Source: Candidatus Micrarchaeia archaeon (GTDB taxonomy: Archaea; Micrarchaeota; Micrarchaeia; Micrarchaeales; CABMGC01). From it: a stretch of 34,434 bases of DNA. The position numbers and the translations under genes were made by a program. The notes under the pieces are model-generated. The model was not told the origin of the DNA. It did not search any database and was given only the letters and a program-made list of their open reading frames with translations. Below are positions 429-16,429 of this stretch, in pieces. The stretch spans positions 1 through 34,434 of the forward strand of contig JBMFIM010000009.1 in the NCBI GenBank assembly GCA_049976305.1, given 5' to 3'. The first letter of the stretch is position 1, and each line of letters starts with the position of its first letter.

Positions 429-1424
429 TTATTGTGCTCCGCCTCCACTTCCAATTTCAATCTCGCTTTCCATCGTGCAGTCCTCGGGCTTCTTGTCGTT
501 TCTCAGCCTGATGAAGGCCGGCGCCCTTAGCATGCGCTCTTTTGTCATCTCCATAAACCTGACCTCTGCAACAAGCCTTGGCGAAGTGTATGTTATTGTT
601 TTTCCAGGCTCTGCCTCGCCTACCTCTACTATCGGCTTCTTGAGCTTGTCCTTTGACAGTTCGTTGAATAGCGCTTCACGCTCCTCTTCGCTGAATCCTG
701 TGCCTACTCTGCCTATGTAAACAAGCTGCCCGCCGGAGTAGAGCCCAAGCAGCAAGGCGCTGAGCTTCTCCTGCTCGCTGGAGGTGAAGCCTATTATAAC
801 AGCATCTATTGTGTTTAACGCCTTTATCTTAAGCCAGTCCTTGCTTCTCTTTTGCACATAGGGCGAGTCTATCCTCTTTGCCATTATGCCTTCCAAGCCC
901 TGTCCCTTGACTTTGTTGAAAAGCTCTATTCCCTTTTCGAATATAAATGAGGACTTTATGGCATAGTTGCTCTCTGTTAGCGTCTTGTCCAGTATCTCCT
1001 TTCTTTCTAGGAGTTTTTTGTCTAGAAGGTCTTCGCCATCTTTGTGAAGTATGTCAAACACCACATAAGTGGCAGGATGAAGCTTTGACAGTATTTCTAT
1101 TTTTGTCTGCTCTCCGCTCTGCTCCCTCTCCTGTAGCAGGTTGAAATCTGGCCTGCCATTGTGGAATACTACAAGCTCGCCATCGAGAATTGCCCTCTTT
1201 GCATCTACTTGCTTGTAAAAGTCTGCGAACTCCGGATAGCGGGCTTGGAAGAAGATCATTCGCCTGTTTAAGAACATTACGCGCCTTGCCTGCGTGTCGA
1301 TATAGGCTATGCACCTAGTGCCATCATACTTTATCTCCATCAAGAAGTCCTTGGAATCGAAAGGCTTTGAAGGAAATGCTAGCATGGGCTTTACCAGCAC
1401 AGGCTCCTTGTCCCAAAGGCTCAT
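429..1424 (-). CDS. ligD: ATP-dependent DNA ligase, LigD-type ligase domain only
   Basis: Motifs I EIKYDGTR, III ILDGELV, IIIa YVVFDIL, IV EGIMAKR, V WLKIK, VI LRAPAFIRLRNDK; OB domain with GRVGTGF; 4 nt downstream of Ku. Confidence 0.93.
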   Translation of the reverse strand: MSLWDKEPVLVKPMLAFPSKPFDSKDFLMEIKYDGTRCIAYIDTQARRVMFLNRRMIFFQARYPEFADFYKQVDAKRAILDGELVVFHNGRPDFNLLQEREQSGEQTKIEILSKLHPATYVVFDILHKDGEDLLDKKLLERKEILDKTLTESNYAIKSSFIFEKGIELFNKVKGQGLEGIMAKRIDSPYVQKRSKDWLKIKALNTIDAVIIGFTSSEQEKLSALLLGLYSGGQLVYIGRVGTGFSEEEREALFNELSKDKLKKPIVEVGEAEPGKTITYTSPRLVAEVRFMEMTKERMLRAPAFIRLRNDKKPEDCTMESEIEIGSGGGAQ

Positions 1425-1428
1425 TGTA

Positions 1429-2190
1429 TCATTGCTTCAAGCTTTCTGTGAGGCTGTCTATAAGGCTCTTTGCAGCCTTTACCTCCTTCGCCGCTTTTAC
1501 CTCGTATTCCTTGCCCGCTGCCTTTGCCTTTATTAGCTCTCTCAGCGCCTCAACGTAGGTATCCTTAAACTGCTCTATTCCTATCGTCTCTTTGCTCATT
1601 TTTTGAATGAGCAATTGTGCGAGCTCTAGCTCCTTCTTTTCCGGTTTTTCCTGATTCTTTAGTTCACTTATTCCCTCTACTGGCACTACCTCATCAGCAT
1701 AGTGCAAAGTATGCATCAACAAAGAATTCTGGTAGGGTCTTAATGCGACAATGTGCTCGCGTTCGCTCATTGTGAGAGTGCCGACTGCTAGTTTGTTCAA
1801 CAGCCCCATTGCTGAAAGGAGAAGGAAATAAGCATGGCTGCCTCCTTTGTCAGGTGCTACGTAATAGCTCCTCTCCACATATATGGGGTCGAGCTGCGAC
1901 GTATCGACAAACTCCTTAATTTCTATGCGCTTTGTAGAGGGTATTTTGATCTTTTCCAAGTCTTCCTTTTCCAGCACTACAAACTTGTCTGCCGATAGCT
2001 GAAAGCCCTTCTTAATCTCCTGCCAAGAAACTTCCCTGTTTTCTACAGGGCACCATCTCTTGTATACAATCCTGTGCCCATTCTTGCACAAAGAATGCAA
2101 GGGCGGTTCGGCGTCGTGTGTGGCAAGGTATACCTTTACAGGTATATTTACAAGGCCGAAGCCTATAGCGCCGTTCCAGATACTCTTCAT
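1429..2190 (-). CDS. ku: Ku DNA end-binding protein (prokaryotic NHEJ)
   Basis: N-terminus IWNGAIGFGLVNIPVKVY, IEIKEFV...DPIY.ERSYYVAP, TLHYADEV, ELELAQLLI, FKDTY; typical prokaryotic Ku core without a long basic tail. Confidence 0.95.
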   Translation of the reverse strand: MKSIWNGAIGFGLVNIPVKVYLATHDAEPPLHSLCKNGHRIVYKRWCPVENREVSWQEIKKGFQLSADKFVVLEKEDLEKIKIPSTKRIEIKEFVDTSQLDPIYVERSYYVAPDKGGSHAYFLLLSAMGLLNKLAVGTLTMSEREHIVALRPYQNSLLMHTLHYADEVVPVEGISELKNQEKPEKKELELAQLLIQKMSKETIGIEQFKDTYVEALRELIKAKAAGKEYEVKAAKEVKAAKSLIDSLTESLKQ

Positions 2191-2332: not shown

Positions 2333-2340
2333 TTTTTAAA
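2333..2340 (+). promoter_or_regulatory. TATA box for the permease operon (probably leaderless transcript)
   Basis: TTTTTAAA about 22 nt upstream of ATG 2362, preceded by an A-rich BRE-like stretch. Confidence 0.5.
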
Positions 2341-2361
2341 AATATATGTTTTAACACTTAT

Positions 2362-3939
2362 ATGAAAACGGGCGGGCGGAATTTTGGAAAAGAATCCAGC
2401 CCGAGGGTTTTTGTAAGGCAATCTACAGGGCTGGTTAAAAACGCAAGCTTTCTCGATGCCGTAAGCATTAACATAAGCAACATGTCTGCAGGCGCCGCGC
2501 TAGCAACTATAGGTTTCACTACTGTACTTTTAAGCTCGATGGCAGGCGTCAACCTTGTCATAGCCTCTATCCTTGCTTTCATTCTTATGCTGCCGCAGCT
2601 CATCATCTACACAATAATGAATAGGCGAGTTCCAAGGACAGGCGGGGACTACGTTTGGACTTCCAGAATCTTTGGCGGTGCACTTGGCGGTTCTCTAGCG
2701 CTCATGGGCTATGTTTTCGAGACGATGGCGTATTTCGCGCTAATCGCCCTTTCAACAGTCTTTGCAATAGGCTCTGTTGGTGTGGCTCTAGGAAAAAGCA
2801 GCTTTCTTGGCCTTGCACTTCCAGCTAATACCTCTGGCTCTCTACCTTTGCTTCAGTTTATAATAGCAGCAGTGCTGTTTGCAATACTTATCTATATTAA
2901 CATAGTAAGGCCAAAGGTCGGCTACAAGCTGGTTACTGTTTTTGTTTCTTTCGGAATAATTATGCTTCTTGTTTCAATTGCCGTACTTCTGCTTGCAGGT
3001 AGGCCGGGAGTAGAGTCATATATTAGCAGTTTGCAATCTACTGGGTTCAACGAAACGTACTCGCAGGTAGCAGCTTCGGGCGGCAATGGCGGCACAACGC
3101 TAAGTGCGGTCCTATTTCTGCTGCCTTTCTTCGCAATATTCGTATACCCTTGGATTGATGCTTCGCCTGCGATCTCTTCTGAGATAAGAGGCAAGAAGGG
3201 GATAAAGTGGGCCATACCTGTCGCATCGCTGATCGTCATGCTGCTCGTCACAGGCAGTTTTGCTGCAATGTACTACGCTGGCGGGACTAGGTTCATAAAC
3301 GGCGCACTAAGCAATCCTACGCTTGTATTCGATTACTCTTTCAACTTCTGGACGCTCGCAATGGGCGTCACAGGCTCTTATCTGCTTAAGGTGCTTATTG
3401 GCCTAGGCTGGATCGCATGGGATATCGCCATACTTGCATATGGGATTATTGTATTCTCTAGGTATGTCTTTGCAATGGCCTTTGACAGATTTCTACCTGA
3501 GAGGCTTGCACACATAAGCCCGAGATACGGCTCCCCTATAAATGCCCATCTGCTAGACCTGGCGATTACCGTGGTTTTGATAGCCTTGGCAACATTCATA
3601 TACGGCCCCTTCTCATCGCTTTACGGTGCCGTTGTTGCGGCAATGATCTATTTCGCTTTTGTAGGCATAGCCGCAGCGGTTTATGGAATAAAAAACGAAA
3701 GCCAGGCTCTTACTAAAGGCGCATTGGTTGTTTTTGGCATACTCACAACTCTGGTATTTGCATACATAACCTATCAATTCCTTGCGTATCCAAGCATATG
3801 GGGAGGCAACGCACTCGCCTATGGCTATGTCGTAGTTTCATTCCTGGTAGGCATAGTGCTTTATGCAGTGTCAAAGAAAAGGTATGCTAAAAGAGGAATA
3901 GACATAGGTCTTGCTTTCAAAGAGATACCGCCTGAATAG
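2362..3939 (+). CDS. APC superfamily amino-acid/amine permease
   Basis: About 12 hydrophobic segments; VFVRQSTGLVK start, PRTGGDYVWTSR, SRYVFAMAFDRFLP, terminal FKEIPPE typical of archaeal APC transporters. Confidence 0.9.
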   Translation: MKTGGRNFGKESSPRVFVRQSTGLVKNASFLDAVSINISNMSAGAALATIGFTTVLLSSMAGVNLVIASILAFILMLPQLIIYTIMNRRVPRTGGDYVWTSRIFGGALGGSLALMGYVFETMAYFALIALSTVFAIGSVGVALGKSSFLGLALPANTSGSLPLLQFIIAAVLFAILIYINIVRPKVGYKLVTVFVSFGIIMLLVSIAVLLLAGRPGVESYISSLQSTGFNETYSQVAASGGNGGTTLSAVLFLLPFFAIFVYPWIDASPAISSEIRGKKGIKWAIPVASLIVMLLVTGSFAAMYYAGGTRFINGALSNPTLVFDYSFNFWTLAMGVTGSYLLKVLIGLGWIAWDIAILAYGIIVFSRYVFAMAFDRFLPERLAHISPRYGSPINAHLLDLAITVVLIALATFIYGPFSSLYGAVVAAMIYFAFVGIAAAVYGIKNESQALTKGALVVFGILTTLVFAYITYQFLAYPSIWGGNALAYGYVVVSFLVGIVLYAVSKKRYAKRGIDIGLAFKEIPPE

Positions 3940-3948
3940 AGGGAAAGA

Positions 3949-4476
3949 ATGCAGCCCAATGAATTGGAGGCAAGGTTGAAAAGCAAGATAAGAAGCATTC
4001 CAGACTTTCCAAAGAAGGGAATAATACTAAGAGACATCACTCCAGTTTTTCAGGACTATGAGCTTTTCAATGCCTGCATAGATGCCTTTGCGGAAAGATT
4101 TAGAAGTGCTGATTACGTAGCAGGCATAGAAGCAAAAGGCTTTATTCTCGGTGCTGCCCTCGCGCGCAAACTAGACATCGGCTTTGTTCCTGTGTATAAG
4201 AAAAATGATATCCCGGTGGAGAAGATAAGCAAGCAGTATGAGCTTGAATACGGCACAGATGTGCTTGAGGTGTTTACCGAGTCTGTGGAGAAGAGTAGCA
4301 GAATTGTCATAGTTGACGAGCTGATTGCGACTGGCGGCACTGCCCATGCTGCCGCTGAACTCCTGGAAAAGCTTGGCGGGCATGTTGTCGGGGCCGCATT
4401 TGTGATAGAGCTTGAGGCTTTGCACGGAAGGGACAAGCTTAGGGGCATAGAAGTCTTTTCGCTTGTGAGGTATTAG
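3949..4476 (+). CDS. apt: Adenine phosphoribosyltransferase-like protein with atypical catalytic motifs
   Basis: IPDFPKKGI..RDITP, YELEYG, IVIVDELIATGGT; overall APRT layout. Confidence 0.85.
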   Translation: MQPNELEARLKSKIRSIPDFPKKGIILRDITPVFQDYELFNACIDAFAERFRSADYVAGIEAKGFILGAALARKLDIGFVPVYKKNDIPVEKISKQYELEYGTDVLEVFTESVEKSSRIVIVDELIATGGTAHAAAELLEKLGGHVVGAAFVIELEALHGRDKLRGIEVFSLVRY

Positions 4477-4477
4477 C

Positions 4478-5446
4478 ATGCTAGGATCAAAAGTTGCAAG
4501 GTTCTTTTTTGTGAGCGATCTGCACGGCTCATCAACAGTTTTCAACAAGGTCATAAACGCCGCCGAGTTTTATAGAATAGGCACAATAGTGGTTGGTGGG
4601 GACCTGACCGGCAAGGTCCTTGTGCCGATAGTAGAATCAGCTTCTGGCTATGCTTTGGAGTTTCAAGGGGAGCTTATAAGAATAAGAAAGAATGAAAGGC
4701 AAAAGCTTGAGGCTTTGGAGAAGGAGATAAGGGCAACAGGCGCATACTATTCAATAATGGATGAGAATGAGTATAATGAAGTGCTAAAAAATCCTAGGCT
4801 GATGGATGCCAAGTTTGTGGAGGCTATGAAGTCTAGCATCGATGATTTCTTCCAGAAGGCAGAAGAAAGACTTGGCGAGCTTGGCGCTAAAATGTACGTA
4901 ATACCTGGCAATGATGACTATAACGAGGTGGCAGAGTATGTTGCCAAGAAGGCAGGCGAGTGTGTTGTACCTTTTGACAATAAAGTAGTTGAAGTGCAGG
5001 GCTATTCTCTGCTGGGTTATGGCTACTCCAACCCCACTCCCTGGAGAACCCCCAGAGAAAAGGAAGAAAAGGAAATTTATTCAGATTTAAAGAAGCTGGT
5101 TGAGAAGGTTGATGGCGAAAAAGCCATATATGTTATACACGCCCCGCCCTACAAAACAGAAATAGACAAGGCACCTAAACTTGGAAGCGACATGAGGCAA
5201 TCTGCGTATGAGTTTCAGCATGTGGGTAGCGTGAGCGTTAGGAGGATAATTGAAGAAGTGCCGCCGTCGCTCGGTCTGCACGGCCATGTGCACGAATCAG
5301 GCGGCATAGATTTTGTAGAAGCTAAGAACAAGGCCAAAGTGCCAGTTATAAATCCAGGGAGTGAGTATAGCTCAGGGCTTCTAAGAGGGGTGATCGTTGA
5401 GCTTGAAGGAATGAGTCTTAGCAAGTATGTTTTCACAAAAGGATAA
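4478..5446 (+). CDS. Calcineurin-like metallophosphoesterase
   Basis: SDLHG, GGDLTGK, PGNDD, HAPP, HGHVHE, NPGS motifs. Confidence 0.9.
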   Translation: MLGSKVARFFFVSDLHGSSTVFNKVINAAEFYRIGTIVVGGDLTGKVLVPIVESASGYALEFQGELIRIRKNERQKLEALEKEIRATGAYYSIMDENEYNEVLKNPRLMDAKFVEAMKSSIDDFFQKAEERLGELGAKMYVIPGNDDYNEVAEYVAKKAGECVVPFDNKVVEVQGYSLLGYGYSNPTPWRTPREKEEKEIYSDLKKLVEKVDGEKAIYVIHAPPYKTEIDKAPKLGSDMRQSAYEFQHVGSVSVRRIIEEVPPSLGLHGHVHESGGIDFVEAKNKAKVPVINPGSEYSSGLLRGVIVELEGMSLSKYVFTKG

Positions 5447-5447
5447 C

Positions 5448-7022
5448 ATGGCGAATGAGGAGCTTCTTCAGAAGGCGTTGCAAATAATAAGCGAAGCGGA
5501 GAAAAGGGGAATAGAGGTAAGGCTTCTTGGCGGTCTTGCTTTTGCCTATTTATCTGGTGCATCAGACGAGTTGAAAGTGTTCAAAAGACACTACAATGAC
5601 ATTGATTTAGCAAGCACTAGGCGCCAAGCGTCACAATTGAATGCGTTGCTTACTGAACTCGGTCTAGTACCAAACAAAGTTTTCAACGCTTTGCACGGCT
5701 ATGATCGATTGCAGTTCTTCTATGGCCAAACAAAGGTAGATGTTTTCCTTGACGAGTTTAAGATGTCCCATTATCTTGACTTAAAAGCAAGGCTTGGCTT
5801 GTCACACGTTACAATTCCAGTTTCAGACCTGCTTCTTACAAAACTTCAGATACATGAGCTAACAGAGAAGGATATGCTTGACGTTGCTTCCCTGCTTGCA
5901 AAATTCAAATTCGGAAATGCCGATTCTTCCACAACCATAGACGCAGGCTATATAGCAAACCTTCTTTCCAAGGACTGGGGGTTCTACAAGACCGCCACTG
6001 ATAACATCCGCAAGATAGAGGCGCATGTACAAGGCTTAAACATAAGCCAGGAAATAAAGAGCAAAATAATCGGCGAGCTCGAATACCTGCTTGGAGCTAT
6101 AATGGAAAAGCCTAAAAGCGCCAGCTGGAAGATTAGGGCAAAAATAGGAGAGCGAGTAAGATGGTATGCGCTTCCTGAAGAAGTTGGTATAGCTGCGCCA
6201 CAGCCCGAAGAGCTTTCATACAGGTGGGTAAGCTTTAGCGAAATGGACAAGATGGCAAAGGCAATAGCTGATAAGGTCCTGAGTAAGTATGGAAGGCCAG
6301 GGGCGATAGTCTACATAGAGCGTGGCGGAATGGTCTTTGGGACCCTTTTAGCGAAATACCTGCATGTTAGCAATATTGCCGGCTTGCAGGCGATTAGCTA
6401 CAAAAGACTCGGCGAAAGAGGGAAGACAGTTTTGTTGCAGAGGCGTGTGGACATAGTACCAAAAGGGTATGTGCTTCTTGCTGATGACATCGCAGATACA
6501 GGCGAGACACTGAGGAAGGTTTCAAGCCTGCTTTCAAAAAAGTACAAGCTGATAACAGCTACTATTGCGTATAAGCCAAGATCGGTAGTTGCGCCAGACA
6601 TTTATGGAATGAAAGTAGACAACAACACTTGGATAATCTTCGATTACGAAGAAAAGGAGGTTATGGACAGCCTTAACGGCAAAGTAACACCGATGGCTTT
6701 TGGAGCGGAGGAAAAGGCATATGCCCAAACAAAGGAAAAGTGCAAGCAGGTTGCTTCTGCTCTTGAAGCAAAATCATTCAAGCCCGATGCAATAATCTAT
6801 TCTTTAGGCTCTGCAATAGAGGCAAGACTGCTGAGCGACTATCTGGATGTCAAGCGTGTGGAGGGAATAAGCAGCAACAAGGAGCTAAAGCCTCAGCTTG
6901 CCAAGCTTCCGAAAAGCAGCAGGCTACTTATAGTTGCAGGAGCTTACGAAGCGGAGAAAATAGAGAAGGGCATAAGAAGGATACGGCCCGGAATGAAGAT
7001 AGAGATAGCAAATTTTGACTAG
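5448..7022 (+). CDS. Fusion of a Pol-beta-superfamily nucleotidyltransferase, a purine (Gpt/HGXPRT-like) phosphoribosyltransferase and a degenerate second PRT-like segment
   Basis: N-terminal LLGGLA...NDIDL...KVDVF...LLLTKLQ...KDMLD; then IERGG, VLLADDIADTGETL, AYKP, WIIFDYE; C-terminal PDAIIYSLGSAIEARLLSDYL. ATG 5448 lies 1 nt after the upstream stop and is preferred over 5427. Confidence 0.8.
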   Translation: MANEELLQKALQIISEAEKRGIEVRLLGGLAFAYLSGASDELKVFKRHYNDIDLASTRRQASQLNALLTELGLVPNKVFNALHGYDRLQFFYGQTKVDVFLDEFKMSHYLDLKARLGLSHVTIPVSDLLLTKLQIHELTEKDMLDVASLLAKFKFGNADSSTTIDAGYIANLLSKDWGFYKTATDNIRKIEAHVQGLNISQEIKSKIIGELEYLLGAIMEKPKSASWKIRAKIGERVRWYALPEEVGIAAPQPEELSYRWVSFSEMDKMAKAIADKVLSKYGRPGAIVYIERGGMVFGTLLAKYLHVSNIAGLQAISYKRLGERGKTVLLQRRVDIVPKGYVLLADDIADTGETLRKVSSLLSKKYKLITATIAYKPRSVVAPDIYGMKVDNNTWIIFDYEEKEVMDSLNGKVTPMAFGAEEKAYAQTKEKCKQVASALEAKSFKPDAIIYSLGSAIEARLLSDYLDVKRVEGISSNKELKPQLAKLPKSSRLLIVAGAYEAEKIEKGIRRIRPGMKIEIANFD

Positions 7023-7486
7023 CTTCTTTTAGAGGCTCCCGTCGCCATTTTCGCCAAGTAAAAATTGAGGAGGCAATAGGTTAAGACCTGGTCTGGGCGA
7101 GAGTTCGGTTTTTCTGGCAATGAGTCTATAGCCCTTACGAGGTCCTCGTCTATGTGGAGAATGTCCTTAAGCTTTATCATTTCCTTAAGCTCTTTGCTAT
7201 AGATCTCAAGCACCGCGCCTAGGTCTTGTTTATTTATAATAAATCTGAATATTTTTGCAACTTCTTCAACATCTAATTTTTCAAGTGCGCTTTTTAGCGC
7301 ATTTATTTCGAAGCTTTCAGCATTTACGCCAAGCTCCTTGTACTTAACAGCAAGATTTGGATGCATTTCTGCCTGTTGCTGAAAGGAGTAATTGAGAAGC
7401 CCCTGAATAAGGAACGTTTTTGCCATTTCCTTGTCTATGCCCAAGCTTTCCAAGCTCTCACTAAAGCTCCTCTTTTTTATCAGCAA
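7019..7486 (-). CDS. Hypothetical helical protein (start uncertain, TTG 7486 or 7453)
   Basis: 155-codon ORF filling the gap between two + strand genes, with plausible K/E/L-rich composition. Confidence 0.6.
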   Translation of the reverse strand: MLIKKRSFSESLESLGIDKEMAKTFLIQGLLNYSFQQQAEMHPNLAVKYKELGVNAESFEINALKSALEKLDVEEVAKIFRFIINKQDLGAVLEIYSKELKEMIKLKDILHIDEDLVRAIDSLPEKPNSRPDQVLTYCLLNFYLAKMATGASKRS

Positions 7487-8204: not shown

Positions 8205-9506
8205 ATGCAATTGTTGCCTTTTGTAGAAAAGCTAAATTCGGAGAACAAACTGCTTCACATTTCGAAGGAAGTCAGTACAGATTATGAGATTGCAGCATAT
8301 CTAAAGAAATACGACGGTAGGCCGGTGGTTTTTGAAAATGTCAAAGGTTCGCAGATAAAAGTAGTAGGAAACCTAATGAGCAACATGGACTTATTCTGCG
8401 AGTGGCTTGATATAGACAAGAGGGCTTGGATACAAACTCTGAAAAATGCGATAGAGAATCCAGGCACGTTTAGAGAAGCAAGCAATAACCCATTTATGTT
8501 TTATGAGCCGGATCTGCCATCCCTGCCAATACTCAAGCACTATCCAAAGGACCAAGGCAAGTACATAACCTCTGGCGTGGTTTTTGCCAGCAGAAATGGA
8601 ATTAGAAATATGTCTTTCCATAGGCTTGCGGTGCTTGGGGAGAATAGGCTTGTTGGAAGGCTTGTTGAGCAGAGAGATTTGCATATGCTCTACCTAGATG
8701 CCAAGGAACACGGCGAAGACTTGGACGTGGCGATAGCAATAGGCAACAGCGCAGGCGTGCTTGTGGCTGCCGCCACTAGTGTCGAAAGAGGGAAATACGA
8801 GCTTGGCATTGCCTCTGCTTTAGAGAGAAGGCCCATCGAAGTTGTGCAGGCAAAGACCAACACAGCGCATTATCCTGCCGATTCTTTGATTGTGCTTGAA
8901 GGTAAGATTCTGCACGATGAGACGGCAAAAGAAGGTCCTTTTGTTGATCTTACCAATACCTATGATATTGTACGGGAGCAGCCTGTGTTCGTAATAGACA
9001 GGGTAGCGATGCAAAAAGACGCAGTTTATCAAGCGCTTCTCCCCGGTGGCAACGAGCACAAAATACTCATGGGCGCGCCAAGAACTCCAACAATCTACAA
9101 AGCCCTTGCCGATTCCGGAATAGATGTGGCAGACATTTATCTAACAGAAGGCGGCAGCGGCTGGTTAGACGTGGTTATAGCGATAAGGAAAAAAAGCGAG
9201 GAAGATCCCAAAAAGGCCTTCGATGCAGCGATAAAAGGCCATAGAAGCCTGAAGAAGATAACAGTTGTTGACGATGACATAAACCCAAGAGACGCCAACG
9301 ATGTGAATTATGCAGTTACTATGTATTGGCGTGCAGGAAAGGAAACGGTGCTTGACAATGTAAAGGGCTCTTCCCTAGATCCGATGGCCACGCCCGATGG
9401 CTTCGGGAGTAAGCTTTTCATAGACGCTACAAGGCCTTTGAATGTTCCTGAGGAAAAGCTGCTTAAGATGAAAAAGGCAAGCATGGATTTCAAAATAGAT
9501 GGTTGA
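8205..9506 (+). CDS. UbiD-family prFMN decarboxylase, probable trans-anhydromevalonate 5-phosphate decarboxylase
   Basis: NMSFHR, EGPFVDLTNTYD, LPGGNEH, VVDDDI, GSSLDP, KLFIDAT; adjacent to aconitase X. Confidence 0.88.
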   Translation: MQLLPFVEKLNSENKLLHISKEVSTDYEIAAYLKKYDGRPVVFENVKGSQIKVVGNLMSNMDLFCEWLDIDKRAWIQTLKNAIENPGTFREASNNPFMFYEPDLPSLPILKHYPKDQGKYITSGVVFASRNGIRNMSFHRLAVLGENRLVGRLVEQRDLHMLYLDAKEHGEDLDVAIAIGNSAGVLVAAATSVERGKYELGIASALERRPIEVVQAKTNTAHYPADSLIVLEGKILHDETAKEGPFVDLTNTYDIVREQPVFVIDRVAMQKDAVYQALLPGGNEHKILMGAPRTPTIYKALADSGIDVADIYLTEGGSGWLDVVIAIRKKSEEDPKKAFDAAIKGHRSLKKITVVDDDINPRDANDVNYAVTMYWRAGKETVLDNVKGSSLDPMATPDGFGSKLFIDATRPLNVPEEKLLKMKKASMDFKIDG

Positions 9507-9510
9507 TACA

Positions 9511-10989
9511 ATGCCTGAGCTTTTTACGAAACAACAAATATCTTGGCTAGATGATGTGGACAAAGAGGGCAACATAATCAATCCAAAGCATGAGCTTTAC
9601 GGAAAGAACATAGCCGGCTCAATTTTGCACATGCCTGCAGCTTCTGGCTCCACTGTTGGAGCGGATAGGCTTGTCAACTTGGCAGTGCATGGCAAGGCAC
9701 CAAAGAAGATAGTTCTTGAGCGCACAGACCCCATCACTATGTGGGGCGCAATACTTGGCAATGTTGACTTGGAAATAGAAGGAAGGGAGAAAAAACCTAT
9801 TGACAGGAGCAAGCTCGACAAGCTAGGCTTAGAGCCTGAGATTGCAGAGTTTCTTGCTAGGGCAGGCGAGCTTTTAGGTACAGATGAGTTTATCCCGGCA
9901 GATTATGTGCAGATAGCAGGCGTAAGCTACAAGACGATTACAGAAACAGGTCTAGAACTGAGAAGATATTTTGCTTCAAAATACAGGTTTAGAGCTAGAA
10001 ACGTAACAATAAACCCGGCAGGCATGGATCTTGAAGCTTGGCAGAGGCAAAACATACCGAAGGAATTTGCAGAGAAGCAGAAGGAAATAATAGACCTTTA
10101 CATTAAGATGGGCGCTCTGCCTACCATAACGTGCACTCCATACCTTGTGGGCAACACGCCCCCGCCATTTACCGACGCTTTTCTTTCAGAGTCTTCAGTG
10201 GTTACGCTTGAGAATTCCCTGTTTGCAGTAAGGAGTAATAGAGAAGCAGGCTTGAGCACGCTTCTTTACGCTATTGCAGGATACGGGCCTAGGTACGGGT
10301 TGCATTTGCAGGAAAACAGGAAGCCAAAGCTCGAGGTAAAGGTTGAAACAGAGCTAAGCGGAGCTGTAGACTATGGGCTTCTCGGCTACAAGATCGGAGA
10401 GCTAGCAAATGGAAGAATTCCATACATAACTGGCATAAGCTCATTGCCCACTATAGAAGAGTTCAAAGAGCTTGCCGCAGCGAGTGCGGCTTCTGGTTCT
10501 GTAGACCTTATGCATATCGAAGGCATAACGCCAGAAGCGAAGCACAAGATGATCAGGCTTGACAGTATCGAAGAAAAGGTAGAAATAGATAGGCAGACTC
10601 TCAATGATCTGAAGGAGGAGCTTAACACAGCAGTTCCTGAGGAGATAGACCTTCTCGCAATTGGTTGCCCACACGCTTCAATAAATGAAATAAAAGAAGT
10701 TGCCACGCTTATAAAAGGTAAGCATCTAAAAGCAGGCAAGCAACTCTGGATAACGACGTCGCGCACCGTCAAGGAAATAGCCCAGAAACTTGGTTATGTA
10801 AGTATTATAGAAGAGGCAGGAGGGCAAGTGGTAGCAGATACCTGCATGGTGGTCTCGCCAATAGAAGACCTTGGCTTTGCCACCACAGCTACAAACTCGG
10901 GCAAGGCTGCAAAATACCTTCCTAGATTTTGCAAGCAGAAAGTAGTGTTCGACGACCTTCAGACGCTGCTCTCAAAAATCATAGAATAG
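9511..10989 (+). CDS. Single-chain aconitase X (swivel + catalytic subunits fused), probable mevalonate 5-phosphate dehydratase
   Basis: N-terminal HEL.GK.IAG.IL.MP...GSTVG...L...GKAP (small subunit), then IAGVSYKTI, TINPAG, TCTPY, SESS, GCPH, DTCMVVSP, TNSGKAA.Y. ATG 9511 chosen from SD-like spacing; 9499 is the alternative. Confidence 0.88.
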   Translation: MPELFTKQQISWLDDVDKEGNIINPKHELYGKNIAGSILHMPAASGSTVGADRLVNLAVHGKAPKKIVLERTDPITMWGAILGNVDLEIEGREKKPIDRSKLDKLGLEPEIAEFLARAGELLGTDEFIPADYVQIAGVSYKTITETGLELRRYFASKYRFRARNVTINPAGMDLEAWQRQNIPKEFAEKQKEIIDLYIKMGALPTITCTPYLVGNTPPPFTDAFLSESSVVTLENSLFAVRSNREAGLSTLLYAIAGYGPRYGLHLQENRKPKLEVKVETELSGAVDYGLLGYKIGELANGRIPYITGISSLPTIEEFKELAAASAASGSVDLMHIEGITPEAKHKMIRLDSIEEKVEIDRQTLNDLKEELNTAVPEEIDLLAIGCPHASINEIKEVATLIKGKHLKAGKQLWITTSRTVKEIAQKLGYVSIIEEAGGQVVADTCMVVSPIEDLGFATTATNSGKAAKYLPRFCKQKVVFDDLQTLLSKIIE

Positions 10990-15099: not shown

Positions 15100-15173
15100 C
15101 GGGCCTGGTGGGATTTGAACCCACGACTTAGAGGTTAAAAGCCTCCCACTCTGCCATCCTGAGTTACAGGCCC
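15100..15173 (-). tRNA. tRNA-Lys(UUU), CCA not encoded
   Basis: Minus strand GGGCCTG TA ACTC AGGATGGCA GAGT G GGAGG CTTTTAA CCTCT AAGTC GTGGG TTCAAAT CCCAC CAGGCCC G; anticodon at 15137-15139. Confidence 0.96.
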
Positions 15174-16357: not shown

Positions 16358-16429
16358 CGCCCTGAGTCGGGATCGAACCGACGACCTACCGGTTAACAGC
16401 CGGTCGCTCTGCCACTGAGCTATCAGGGC
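16358..16429 (-). tRNA. tRNA-Asn(GUU), CCA not encoded
   Basis: Minus strand GCCCTGA TA GCTC AGTGGCA GAGC G ACCGG CTGTTAA CCGGT AGGTC GTCGG TTCGATC CCGAC TCAGGGC G; anticodon at 16395-16397. Confidence 0.97.

Follow-up and report, generated by a model that had tools for sequence, protein, structure and literature searches.

Contig JBMFIM010000009.1 comes from the assembly of a Candidatus Micrarchaeia archaeon, a DPANN organism with a genome of 723 kb (assembly 93.7% complete), and was analysed over a stretch of 34,434 nt, which is referred to here as the window. It carries an operon of four co-directional genes coding for an APC-superfamily permease, an adenine phosphoribosyltransferase (APRT), a calcineurin-like metallophosphoesterase (MPE) and a fusion protein, in which a nucleotidyltransferase (NTase) domain is followed by a type I purine phosphoribosyltransferase (PRT) domain and a degenerate copy of the latter (Table 1). 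The conserved unit at this locus is the triad of permease, MPE and NTase, while the purine enzymes are a lineage-specific add-on.

The four open reading frames (ORFs), all on the forward strand, are closely spaced, as could be read directly at their junctions. The permease gene ends in TAG (3937-3939), 9 nt before the ATG of the APRT gene (3949); the APRT gene ends in TAG (4474-4476), 1 nt before the ATG of the MPE gene (4478); and the MPE gene ends in TAA (5444-5446), again 1 nt before the ATG of the fusion gene (5448). For the last gene (5427/5448-7022), an alternative in-frame ATG at 5427 would result in a 20-nt overlap with the MPE gene; its homologs begin near the methionine at 5448. About 15-29 nt upstream of the first ATG lies a TATA-like A/T-rich stretch, whose position fits that of an archaeal promoter for a near-leaderless transcript, and it is listed as a putative promoter. 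The co-directional layout, the gaps and the TATA-like stretch had been described in a first-pass annotation made from the sequence alone and are confirmed by this reading. Its gene and domain calls (APC transporter, APRT-like protein, GNDD phosphoesterase and NTase-PRT fusion) are also borne out, by Pfam scores and by the predicted fold of the NTase. A search of sequencing runs found the sequence in one DNA run, from a hot-spring metagenome, with no RNA run among those listed.

Table 1. Features of the operon in the window
Feature	Position	Strand	Basis
TATA-like A/T-rich stretch TTTTTAAAAATATAT, putative promoter	2333..2347	+	Read directly
APC-superfamily permease, 525 aa	2362..3939	+	PF13520 (AA_permease_2), 74.8 bits
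Permease N-tail motif FVRQSTGLVK, residues 17-26	2410..2439	+	Permease alignment
Permease C-terminal tail RGIDIGLAFKEIPPE, residues 511-525, protein end	3892..3936	+	Permease alignment
Adenine phosphoribosyltransferase (APRT), 175 aa	3949..4476	+	NF002636, TIGR01090
Calcineurin-like metallophosphoesterase (MPE), 322 aa, GNDD family	4478..5446	+	PF00149, 28.9 bits
NTase domain, fusion residues 8-255 (531-aa reading)	5448..6191	+	Model fold and invariant residues
Type I purine PRT domain, fusion residues 262-415	6210..6671	+	PF00156, 45.8 bits
Degenerate PRT-like C-terminal domain, residues 428-531, with stop codon	6708..7022	+	hhalign against the PRT domain

Conservation of the triad

An alignment of the MPE was searched against one genome per species, which gave at least 600 stretches with a match; of these the 80 best-scoring loci were retained, so that the set is not a random sample. 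Neighboring genes at these loci were counted by tblastn with the proteins of the window, within 6 kb. All three triad genes are present at 57 of the 80 MPE loci, the MPE being accompanied by the permease only at 11, by the NTase only at one and by neither at 11 (permease at 68 and NTase at 58 loci overall). The strong linkage of the NTase to phosphoesterase and permease thus answers the first-pass annotation, which had proposed a neighborhood analysis of NTase homologs for such linkage and for the frequency of attached PRT domains; the latter are found at seven of the 80 loci. The survey covers archaea of the Micrarchaeota, Marsarchaeota, Bathyarchaeia, Nitrososphaeria and Sulfolobales, and bacteria of the Actinomycetota, Chloroflexota, Desulfobacterales, Spirochaetota, Bacillota and Caldisericum. 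In five of five examined genomes with an MPE locus lacking the NTase, an NTase is encoded elsewhere (E-value <1e-49 in four and 2e-10 in one), and one Bathyarchaeota genome (G045) has nine NTase copies. From the loci of this survey, the triad was defined as the three genes within 6 kb, with a permease ending in ..[KG]E[IL]PP[ED] and an MPE with the motif GNDD, all of which the window possesses.

Among 41 related genomes, six encode the full NTase-PRT fusion, and in a collection of 5.8 billion proteins 21 of 24 hits are full-length fusions of 527-582 aa. The gene order permease-MPE-fusion is kept in all five relatives whose loci were compared. The arrangement of the operon is not a product of chance, since this order occurs in six of the 41 related genomes and the triad recurs in distant phyla at 57 of the 80 MPE loci. 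In a midpoint-rooted tree, the seven PRT-fused NTases form one clade (100/99 support), consistent with the fusion having arisen by a single event. It is confined to one clade of genome-reduced DPANN archaea, named Micrarchaeota/Marsarchaeota by NCBI and Microcaldota by another label.

As the first-pass annotation had supposed, no described pathway, triad or fusion of this composition was found in NCBIfam, Pfam, PADLOC or the literature, although supplements of DPANN genome papers could list the genes. The literature search gave nothing that joins a metallophosphoesterase, a nucleotidyltransferase and an APC family permease, and nothing relevant on purine salvage or PRTs of Micrarchaeota.

The permease and its tails

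The AA_permease_2 score of the permease lies well above the Pfam cut-off of 27 bits, which places it in the APC superfamily, and a hydropathy scan shows hydrophobic segments across residues 43-503, in keeping with about 12 membrane segments. It shares 66-80% identity with its homologs in related genomes and 21-27% with the triad permeases found in other phyla. Conservation extends into both tails. The N-tail motif has the consensus F.R.[AS][ST]GL[VI]R, and the alignment of 27 triad permeases shows R19 and G23 without exception, with the Gly always preceded by Ser or Thr; APC transporters in general have part of this motif. All 27 also end exactly in the tail (R/K)G(I/V)D..(L/M)x(F/Y)(K/G)E(I/L)PP(E/D), here ..FKEIPPE. 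This tail is absent from the two other APC permeases of the host genome, neither of which has an MPE or NTase gene adjoining.

The Bathyarchaeota genome with nine NTase copies allows the association of tail and MPE to be followed within a single organism. Nine of its 16 APC-permease hits bear the tail (seven by pattern, and two ending in ..PPL that were counted by eye), and for five of these nine there is an MPE within 4.5 kb. Among the seven tail-less permeases, there is an MPE within 1 kb of one (a partial hit), and another lies 5.9 kb from the MPE of a neighbor. The association is positive, though loose.

The first-pass annotation had proposed structure prediction of complexes, and one such prediction, of the MPE and NTase with permease residues 496-525 as partner, gave weak support for the tail binding the MPE. 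Its score is 0.58, compared to 0.00 for the best of three controls; at least 59% of contacts are common to the runs, and for the partner the predicted local distance difference test (pLDDT) value is about 51. A control in which the MPE was replaced and the NTase kept scored 0.00, so the predicted docking depends on the MPE chain. In calibration, 116 of 157 solved complexes reached the mark, as did two of 215 mismatched pairs; at scores of 0.60 or below it was reached by only 18 of the 157 solved complexes and by both of the passing mismatches. A pass at this level is more often wrong than right unless the interaction was likely beforehand, and for this reason the docking is used here only as a lead.

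The metallophosphoesterase

The MPE scores above the cut-off for Metallophos (21.5 bits). In an alignment of 20 homologs, the residues D14, H16, G41-D42, G144-N-D-D147, H221, G269-H270 and H272 are invariant, so that all metal-ligand motifs are present. Motif III reads GNDD in 20 of 20 sequences, with Asp in place of His. Other active MPEs are also without this His, so that catalytic activity is likely. A sequence search against solved structures gave a best hit of only E ~0.01. The model of the protein (pLDDT 94.7) is closest in fold to aq_1956 (2yvt, Z 24.5; root-mean-square deviation [rmsd] 3.1 over 235 aligned residues), followed by TT1561 (1uf3, Z 22.5) and MPPED2 (3rl3, Z 20.6).

The fusion protein

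The N-terminal domain of gene 4 has only a sub-threshold Pfam match, to NTP_transf_5 (PF14907, 25.4 bits against a cut-off of 31.2), a family that is called uncharacterised in a paper naming it. Its identification as a Pol-beta-type NTase is nevertheless confirmed, on the level of sequence and model, because the predicted fold (pLDDT 94.0) is that of Pol-beta NTases and the G..DxD..D pattern of Gly-rich turn, DxD and third carboxylate is conserved. In 47 archaeal and bacterial homologs, G35-G36 and D58-x-D60 never vary and D105 is conserved in at least 90%, and the invariant set further includes H115, K139, Q141 and D152. The nearest folds are ANT(2'')-Ia (Z 12.2, rmsd 3.5 over 154 aligned residues), MenT1 (11.9) and 5uvd (11.1), with LnuA (10.3; Foldseek E-value 1.5e-4), JHP933 (9.6), MenT3 (9.2) and Bacillus subtilis Rel (6.8) further away.

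Stand-alone members of this NTase family are about 250-275 aa in length. The family lies below every Pfam and NCBIfam cut-off and has no name in either, while comprising 2956 clusters at 50% identity with an E-value of at most 1e-3 and 1043 with at most 1e-30. None of nine stand-alone NTases scanned against Pfam was above cut-off (one with a sub-threshold match to NTP_transf_5, one to AbiEii and seven with none), nor was any of six scanned against NCBIfam, where a GntR hit (E-value 0.0087) is put down to chance. Fusions are rare, as among 55 NTase-bearing proteins of 292-930 aa only 11 have a PRT domain and two a Redoxin/AhpC domain. The latter, P0146 (443 aa) and P0180 (433 aa), in which the NTase is joined to Redoxin/AhpC-TSA, represent the only other recurrent fusion. 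It is worth mentioning that a divergent stand-alone homolog of 37% identity (genome G008, L017 7349-8260) has no MPE or permease gene within 7 kb and is flanked by genes for FtsZ and a PolX-PHP protein.

A role in defense or as a toxin-antitoxin system of the MenT-AbiEii kind was considered and rejected, given that PADLOC has no match for the NTase, that no antitoxin gene is present and that the NTase has an MPE and a permease for neighbors. Neither the fusion nor the permease is matched by any PADLOC model, and the hits obtained for the MPE (PDC-S10, E-value 2.7e-9) and APRT (a weak ShosT match, E-value 0.0025) are generic.

The central domain of the fusion scores above the Pribosyltran cut-off of 26.3 bits and its nearest solved structures are Sulfolobus solfataricus GpT-2 (4z1o, E-value 1.3e-12) and a purine PRT of Pyrococcus horikoshii (1vdm, E-value 2.2e-11). 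It stays below the E. coli-type XPRT/HGPRT equivalogs (NF006613, 61.6 bits against 138; TIGR01203, 34.1 against 150) and is nearer to the archaeal GpT-type enzymes. The ERGG loop, the DDIADTGET loop for phosphoribosyl pyrophosphate (PRPP), K383 and W402 are conserved among the fusions; in the pyrophosphate and PRPP loops, E298-R-G-G301, D353, D354, D357, G359 and T361 are each at least 90% conserved. In the first-pass annotation it had been left undecided whether the PRT fold serves as catalyst or as sensor. The sequence argues for the former, as the domain looks catalytic and not like a PyrR/PurR-like sensor, because all motifs are conserved and a PRPP synthetase gene is present in four of the six fusion genomes. 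The third domain is a degenerate copy of the PRT domain (hhalign probability 98.6%, E-value 1.1e-15 over 97 columns) in which both the ERGG and the DDxxDTG loops are lost.

This type of PRT is also found in other settings. Genome G006 encodes a two-domain protein of PRT and degenerate PRT without an NTase (L018 3573-4403) and genome G010 two tandem stand-alone PRT genes (L020 786-1780), both of which look like unfused forms of the C-terminal part of the fusion. In a Thermoplasmata archaeon, a protein of 753 aa (P0025) has two ABC-transporter ATPase domains followed by a PRT that is 42% identical to the fused PRT, making this the second instance in which such a PRT is joined to part of an uptake system.

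The APRT

By its sequence, the product of gene 2, which like that of gene 4 has a Pribosyltran domain, is an ordinary APRT. It scores above both NCBIfam equivalog cut-offs (NF002636, 207.2 bits against 125; TIGR01090, 205.1 against 185.85) and aligns end to end with the solved APRT 4lza (E-value 1.1e-47). The PRPP loop reads VDELIATGGT compared to VDDLLATGGT in 4lza, a conservative change from Asp to Glu which leaves the acidic pair and ATGGT in place. The first-pass annotation had taken the protein for an altered APRT; VDDL to VDEL in this loop is the sole deviation and, in view of the equivalog scores and the alignment with 4lza, that description is rejected.

The APRT gene lies between the permease and MPE genes only in the two closest relatives, out of five loci fetched. 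In one of these two (genome G004, L023 1585-2099, equal to L013), the APRT homolog is found by tblastn in two pieces covering residues 1-129 and 137-175, which differ in frame and are separated by 11 nt, apparently through a frameshift or an assembly error. In a genome of the same genus (G001, L014 784-2070), the slot between permease and MPE held by APRT in the window is occupied by a four-domain mutase of the PGM/PMM family, possibly a phosphopentomutase feeding PRPP synthesis.

Purine metabolism and cargo genes

The host genome has three Pribosyltran genes in all, of which the fusion is the only gpt-like PRT found, in addition to genes for IMP dehydrogenase, one PNP-family phosphorylase and one PGM/PMM protein; a dCTP deaminase gene is present in the window. 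Genes for purA, purH and base transporters of the NCS1 and NCS2 families were not found in the 93.7%-complete assembly, nor was Pribosyltran_N. A PRPP synthetase was found above cut-off in 12 of 41 relatives (four of six fusion genomes and eight of 35 others), these genomes not being mutually independent. A cultivated member of the group is reported to be without most nucleotide biosynthesis genes (PMC8784108). Taken together, the gene content fits catalytic PRTs that would serve purine salvage in an auxotroph.

The neighbors of the fused clade are related to nucleotides, namely APRT, the mutase of the PGM/PMM family that lies between permease and MPE, an NT5C-like nucleotidase and dNK-like kinases. 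Outside the DPANN clade, 57 of 103 flanking ORFs were scanned, hand-picked and mostly adjacent on the same strand. These include eight class-III aminotransferases (Aminotran_3), four aldehyde dehydrogenases (Aldedh), four AsnC-type regulators, three FGGY kinases, three NuoF-like proteins and two inositol monophosphatases (IMPase), with no PRT among them. The scanned ORFs also include one choline/ethanolamine-kinase-like gene, in Desulfobacterales, which lies inside the triad itself.

Interpretation of the operon

The reading preferred here, with a confidence that falls slightly short of even, is that the operon is a purine-uptake and salvage version of a widespread, undescribed permease-MPE-NTase module, in which NTase and MPE are accessory to a transport complex. 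In one DPANN clade the NTase would have become fused to a two-domain purine PRT, with one active and one degenerate domain, and in the genus of the window an ordinary APRT gene would have been inserted in addition. The permease may import purine bases or a closely related purine compound. To judge by homology and by the motifs, which are intact, APRT would make adenosine monophosphate, while the fused PRT, being of the 6-oxopurine type, would make inosine, guanosine or xanthosine monophosphate from PRPP. The cell would need both PRTs because purA and the de novo genes are lacking and IMP dehydrogenase is present. MPE and NTase would form an accessory pair that acts on the transport complex and not on the cargo, since their catalytic residues are fixed while the neighboring pathway changes. 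Their activity would most likely be a cycle of nucleotidylation and hydrolysis which gates or couples uptake, with the MPE possibly sitting on the cytoplasmic tail of the permease, as weakly predicted. The fusion may tether the PRT to the transport complex, such that an imported base would be trapped at once as a nucleotide.

A number of observations weigh against this proposal. PRPP synthetase was not found in the 93.7%-complete host assembly but only in a near-identical relative; as that relative and three other fusion genomes hold a full ribP_PPkin gene, the gap is probably one of the assembly. The same genes led to rejection of the idea that the PRT substitutes for a missing PRPP synthetase. 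With a nucleoside phosphorylase in the host, bases could arise inside the cell. The same permease subfamily sits elsewhere with genes of amine catabolism and APC-family (AA_permease) proteins are not known to transport bases. The enzymes structurally closest to the NTase act on small molecules (ANT, Lnu) or tRNA (MenT) and not on proteins, the C-terminal tail of the permease has no invariant Ser, Thr or Tyr, and in the Bathyarchaeota genome four of the nine tail-bearing permeases have no MPE within 4.5 kb. Finally, the many paralogous triads in one genome, reflected in nine NTase copies, fit substrate-specific chemistry as well as they fit specific regulation.

The first of the two mechanisms offered in the first-pass annotation was a writer/eraser switch. 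In its version with a sensor PRT, the NTase would nucleotidylate the permease or another operon protein, the MPE would remove the mark, and the PRT domains would be non-catalytic sensors of PRPP or purines in the manner of PyrR and PurR. The catalytic residues of NTase and MPE are conserved beside permeases with unrelated cargo genes, the cytoplasmic motifs of the permease are conserved, including the N-tail Ser/Thr, and the degenerate C-terminal domain could be regulatory. However, the main PRT keeps every catalytic motif and is the only gpt-like PRT found in the host genome, the module has no PII-like or other target protein, and protein-AMPylating NTases are not among the closest folds. We consider the switch unlikely.

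We also hold it improbable that NTase and MPE act in a substrate pathway, a generalized form of the second mechanism from the first-pass annotation, with the NTase nucleotidylating a hydroxyl or amino group of the imported compound in the manner of ANT and Lnu, and the MPE cleaving the phosphodiester and handing a phosphorylated or released product to the downstream enzyme; for the archaeon studied here, the imported compound would be a conjugate that contains a purine. The folds speak for this pathway, as those nearest to the NTase act on small molecules or tRNA, with the small-molecule enzymes ANT(2'')-Ia and LnuA among them (Z 12.2 and 10.3), and so do the several paralogous triads per genome and the choline/ethanolamine-kinase-like gene inside the Desulfobacterales triad. 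A gene of this kind in such a position recalls the lic-type operons of uptake and activation. On the other hand, NTase and MPE have constant active-site residues next to cargo enzymes as different as PRT, aminotransferase and FGGY kinase, nucleotidylation with a nucleoside triphosphate followed by hydrolysis would be costly, and purine bases have no obvious acceptor hydroxyl.

A second-messenger module, with the NTase-fold protein making a signaling nucleotide, an Icc-like MPE degrading it and the permease as sensor or target, is very improbable, for although the Pol-beta NTase superfamily includes synthases of alarmones and cyclic oligonucleotides (B. subtilis Rel, Z 6.8), MPE homologs are named 'Icc-related predicted phosphoesterase' in one source and the metallophosphodiesterase MPPED2 is close in fold (Z 20.6), no effector or receptor domain is present, the similarity to Rel and CD-NTases is weak and does not extend beyond the core, and PADLOC has no match for the NTase.

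Within the preferred reading of an uptake module, a bolder and rather unlikely version may be put forward. Here, the NTase and the GNDD MPE would be a dedicated writer/eraser pair, docked on the permease tail and gating uptake by reversible nucleotidylation, with the NTase in this clade welded to a purine PRT. If true, this would be a PII-free principle of transporter control common to thousands of archaeal and bacterial permeases, and purine import and phosphoribosylation would take place in one membrane-bound machine. Such a machine would revive the old idea of purine group translocation.

The two purine enzymes are routine in themselves and act as a label on a module of undescribed function, whose NTase has stayed with a GNDD MPE and a permease bearing the tail in lineages ranging from DPANN archaea to soil Actinomycetota and Chloroflexota. 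With the PRT fusion, the enzyme downstream can for the first time be assigned one well-understood class of substrates, which makes the module testable. With regard to DPANN biology, the operon points to a likely route of purine entry in a symbiont unable to make purines.

Other genes in the window

Convergent on the fusion gene is an ORF of 155 aa (7019-7486, reverse strand) without a match in Pfam, NCBIfam or PADLOC, which is conserved only in the two closest relatives (82-99% identity). Upstream of the operon and divergent from it (429-2190, reverse strand), a Ku homolog (PF02735, E-value 3.6e-45) lies beside an ATP-dependent DNA ligase (PF01068, PF04679), forming a pair of the non-homologous end joining type in a DPANN genome of 723 kb. 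Further downstream (8205-10989, forward strand), a gene for a UbiD-family decarboxylase overlaps one for a fused AcnX (aconitase X with swivel domain); we take these to match enzymes of the modified archaeal mevalonate pathway. No regulatory RNA was found in the window by Rfam, the sole matches being two tRNA genes on the reverse strand (15100-15173 and 16358-16429).

Comparison with known systems

In comparison with known APRTs (TIGR01090/NF002636; 4lza), the only difference in sequence is Glu for Asp at the second acidic position of the PRPP loop, and it is the place of the gene inside the triad, confined to the closest relatives, that sets it apart. The MPE has the dimetal ligand set in common with its closest folds, MPPED2 and the uncharacterised structural-genomics proteins aq_1956 and TT1561. 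It differs from these in having GNDD for GNH[DE], a conserved TPW..PRE motif and linkage to a permease and an NTase.

The NTase has the same Pol-beta core, helical C-domain and G..DxD..D pattern as ANT(2'')-Ia, LnuA, MenT1/MenT3 and JHP933. Sequence identity to these is 9-18%, however, and the NTase is found in neither a resistance nor a toxin-antitoxin context and with no antitoxin gene. Compared to ANT, Lnu and MenT, the family has invariant residues of its own, namely H115, K139, Q141, D152, W184, K230 and R237.

The control of ammonium uptake by AmtB-GlnK-GlnD offers a comparison: there, a Pol-beta-type NTase encoded together with the transporter attaches a nucleotidyl mark, which is erased by a hydrolytic activity, so that uptake is matched to metabolic status. 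The first-pass annotation had likened a possible switch in this operon to GlnD/GlnE, but no PII, glutamine synthetase, ACT or HD domain was found in the four genes or their neighbors. The triad differs in having no PII protein and no ACT or HD domains, its transporter is of another family, and the eraser would be a separate MPE.

The fused PRT aligns with GpT-2 (4z1o) and 1vdm over about 150 residues, with the RGG loop, the DDxxDTGxT PRPP loop and the KP..PD and WI.F motifs in common. Unlike these enzymes, it stands between an NTase domain and a degenerate copy of itself and lies below the NCBIfam XPRT equivalog cut-off. A purine PRT likewise joined to a second nucleotide-handling domain is present in the HGPRT/adenylate kinase fusion of Zobellia galactanivorans, where the partner is reported to be a kinase acting on the product of the PRT (PMC7326950). 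In the operon described here the partner is instead a domain of NTase fold, which also stands alone, in about 3000 clusters without a PRT.

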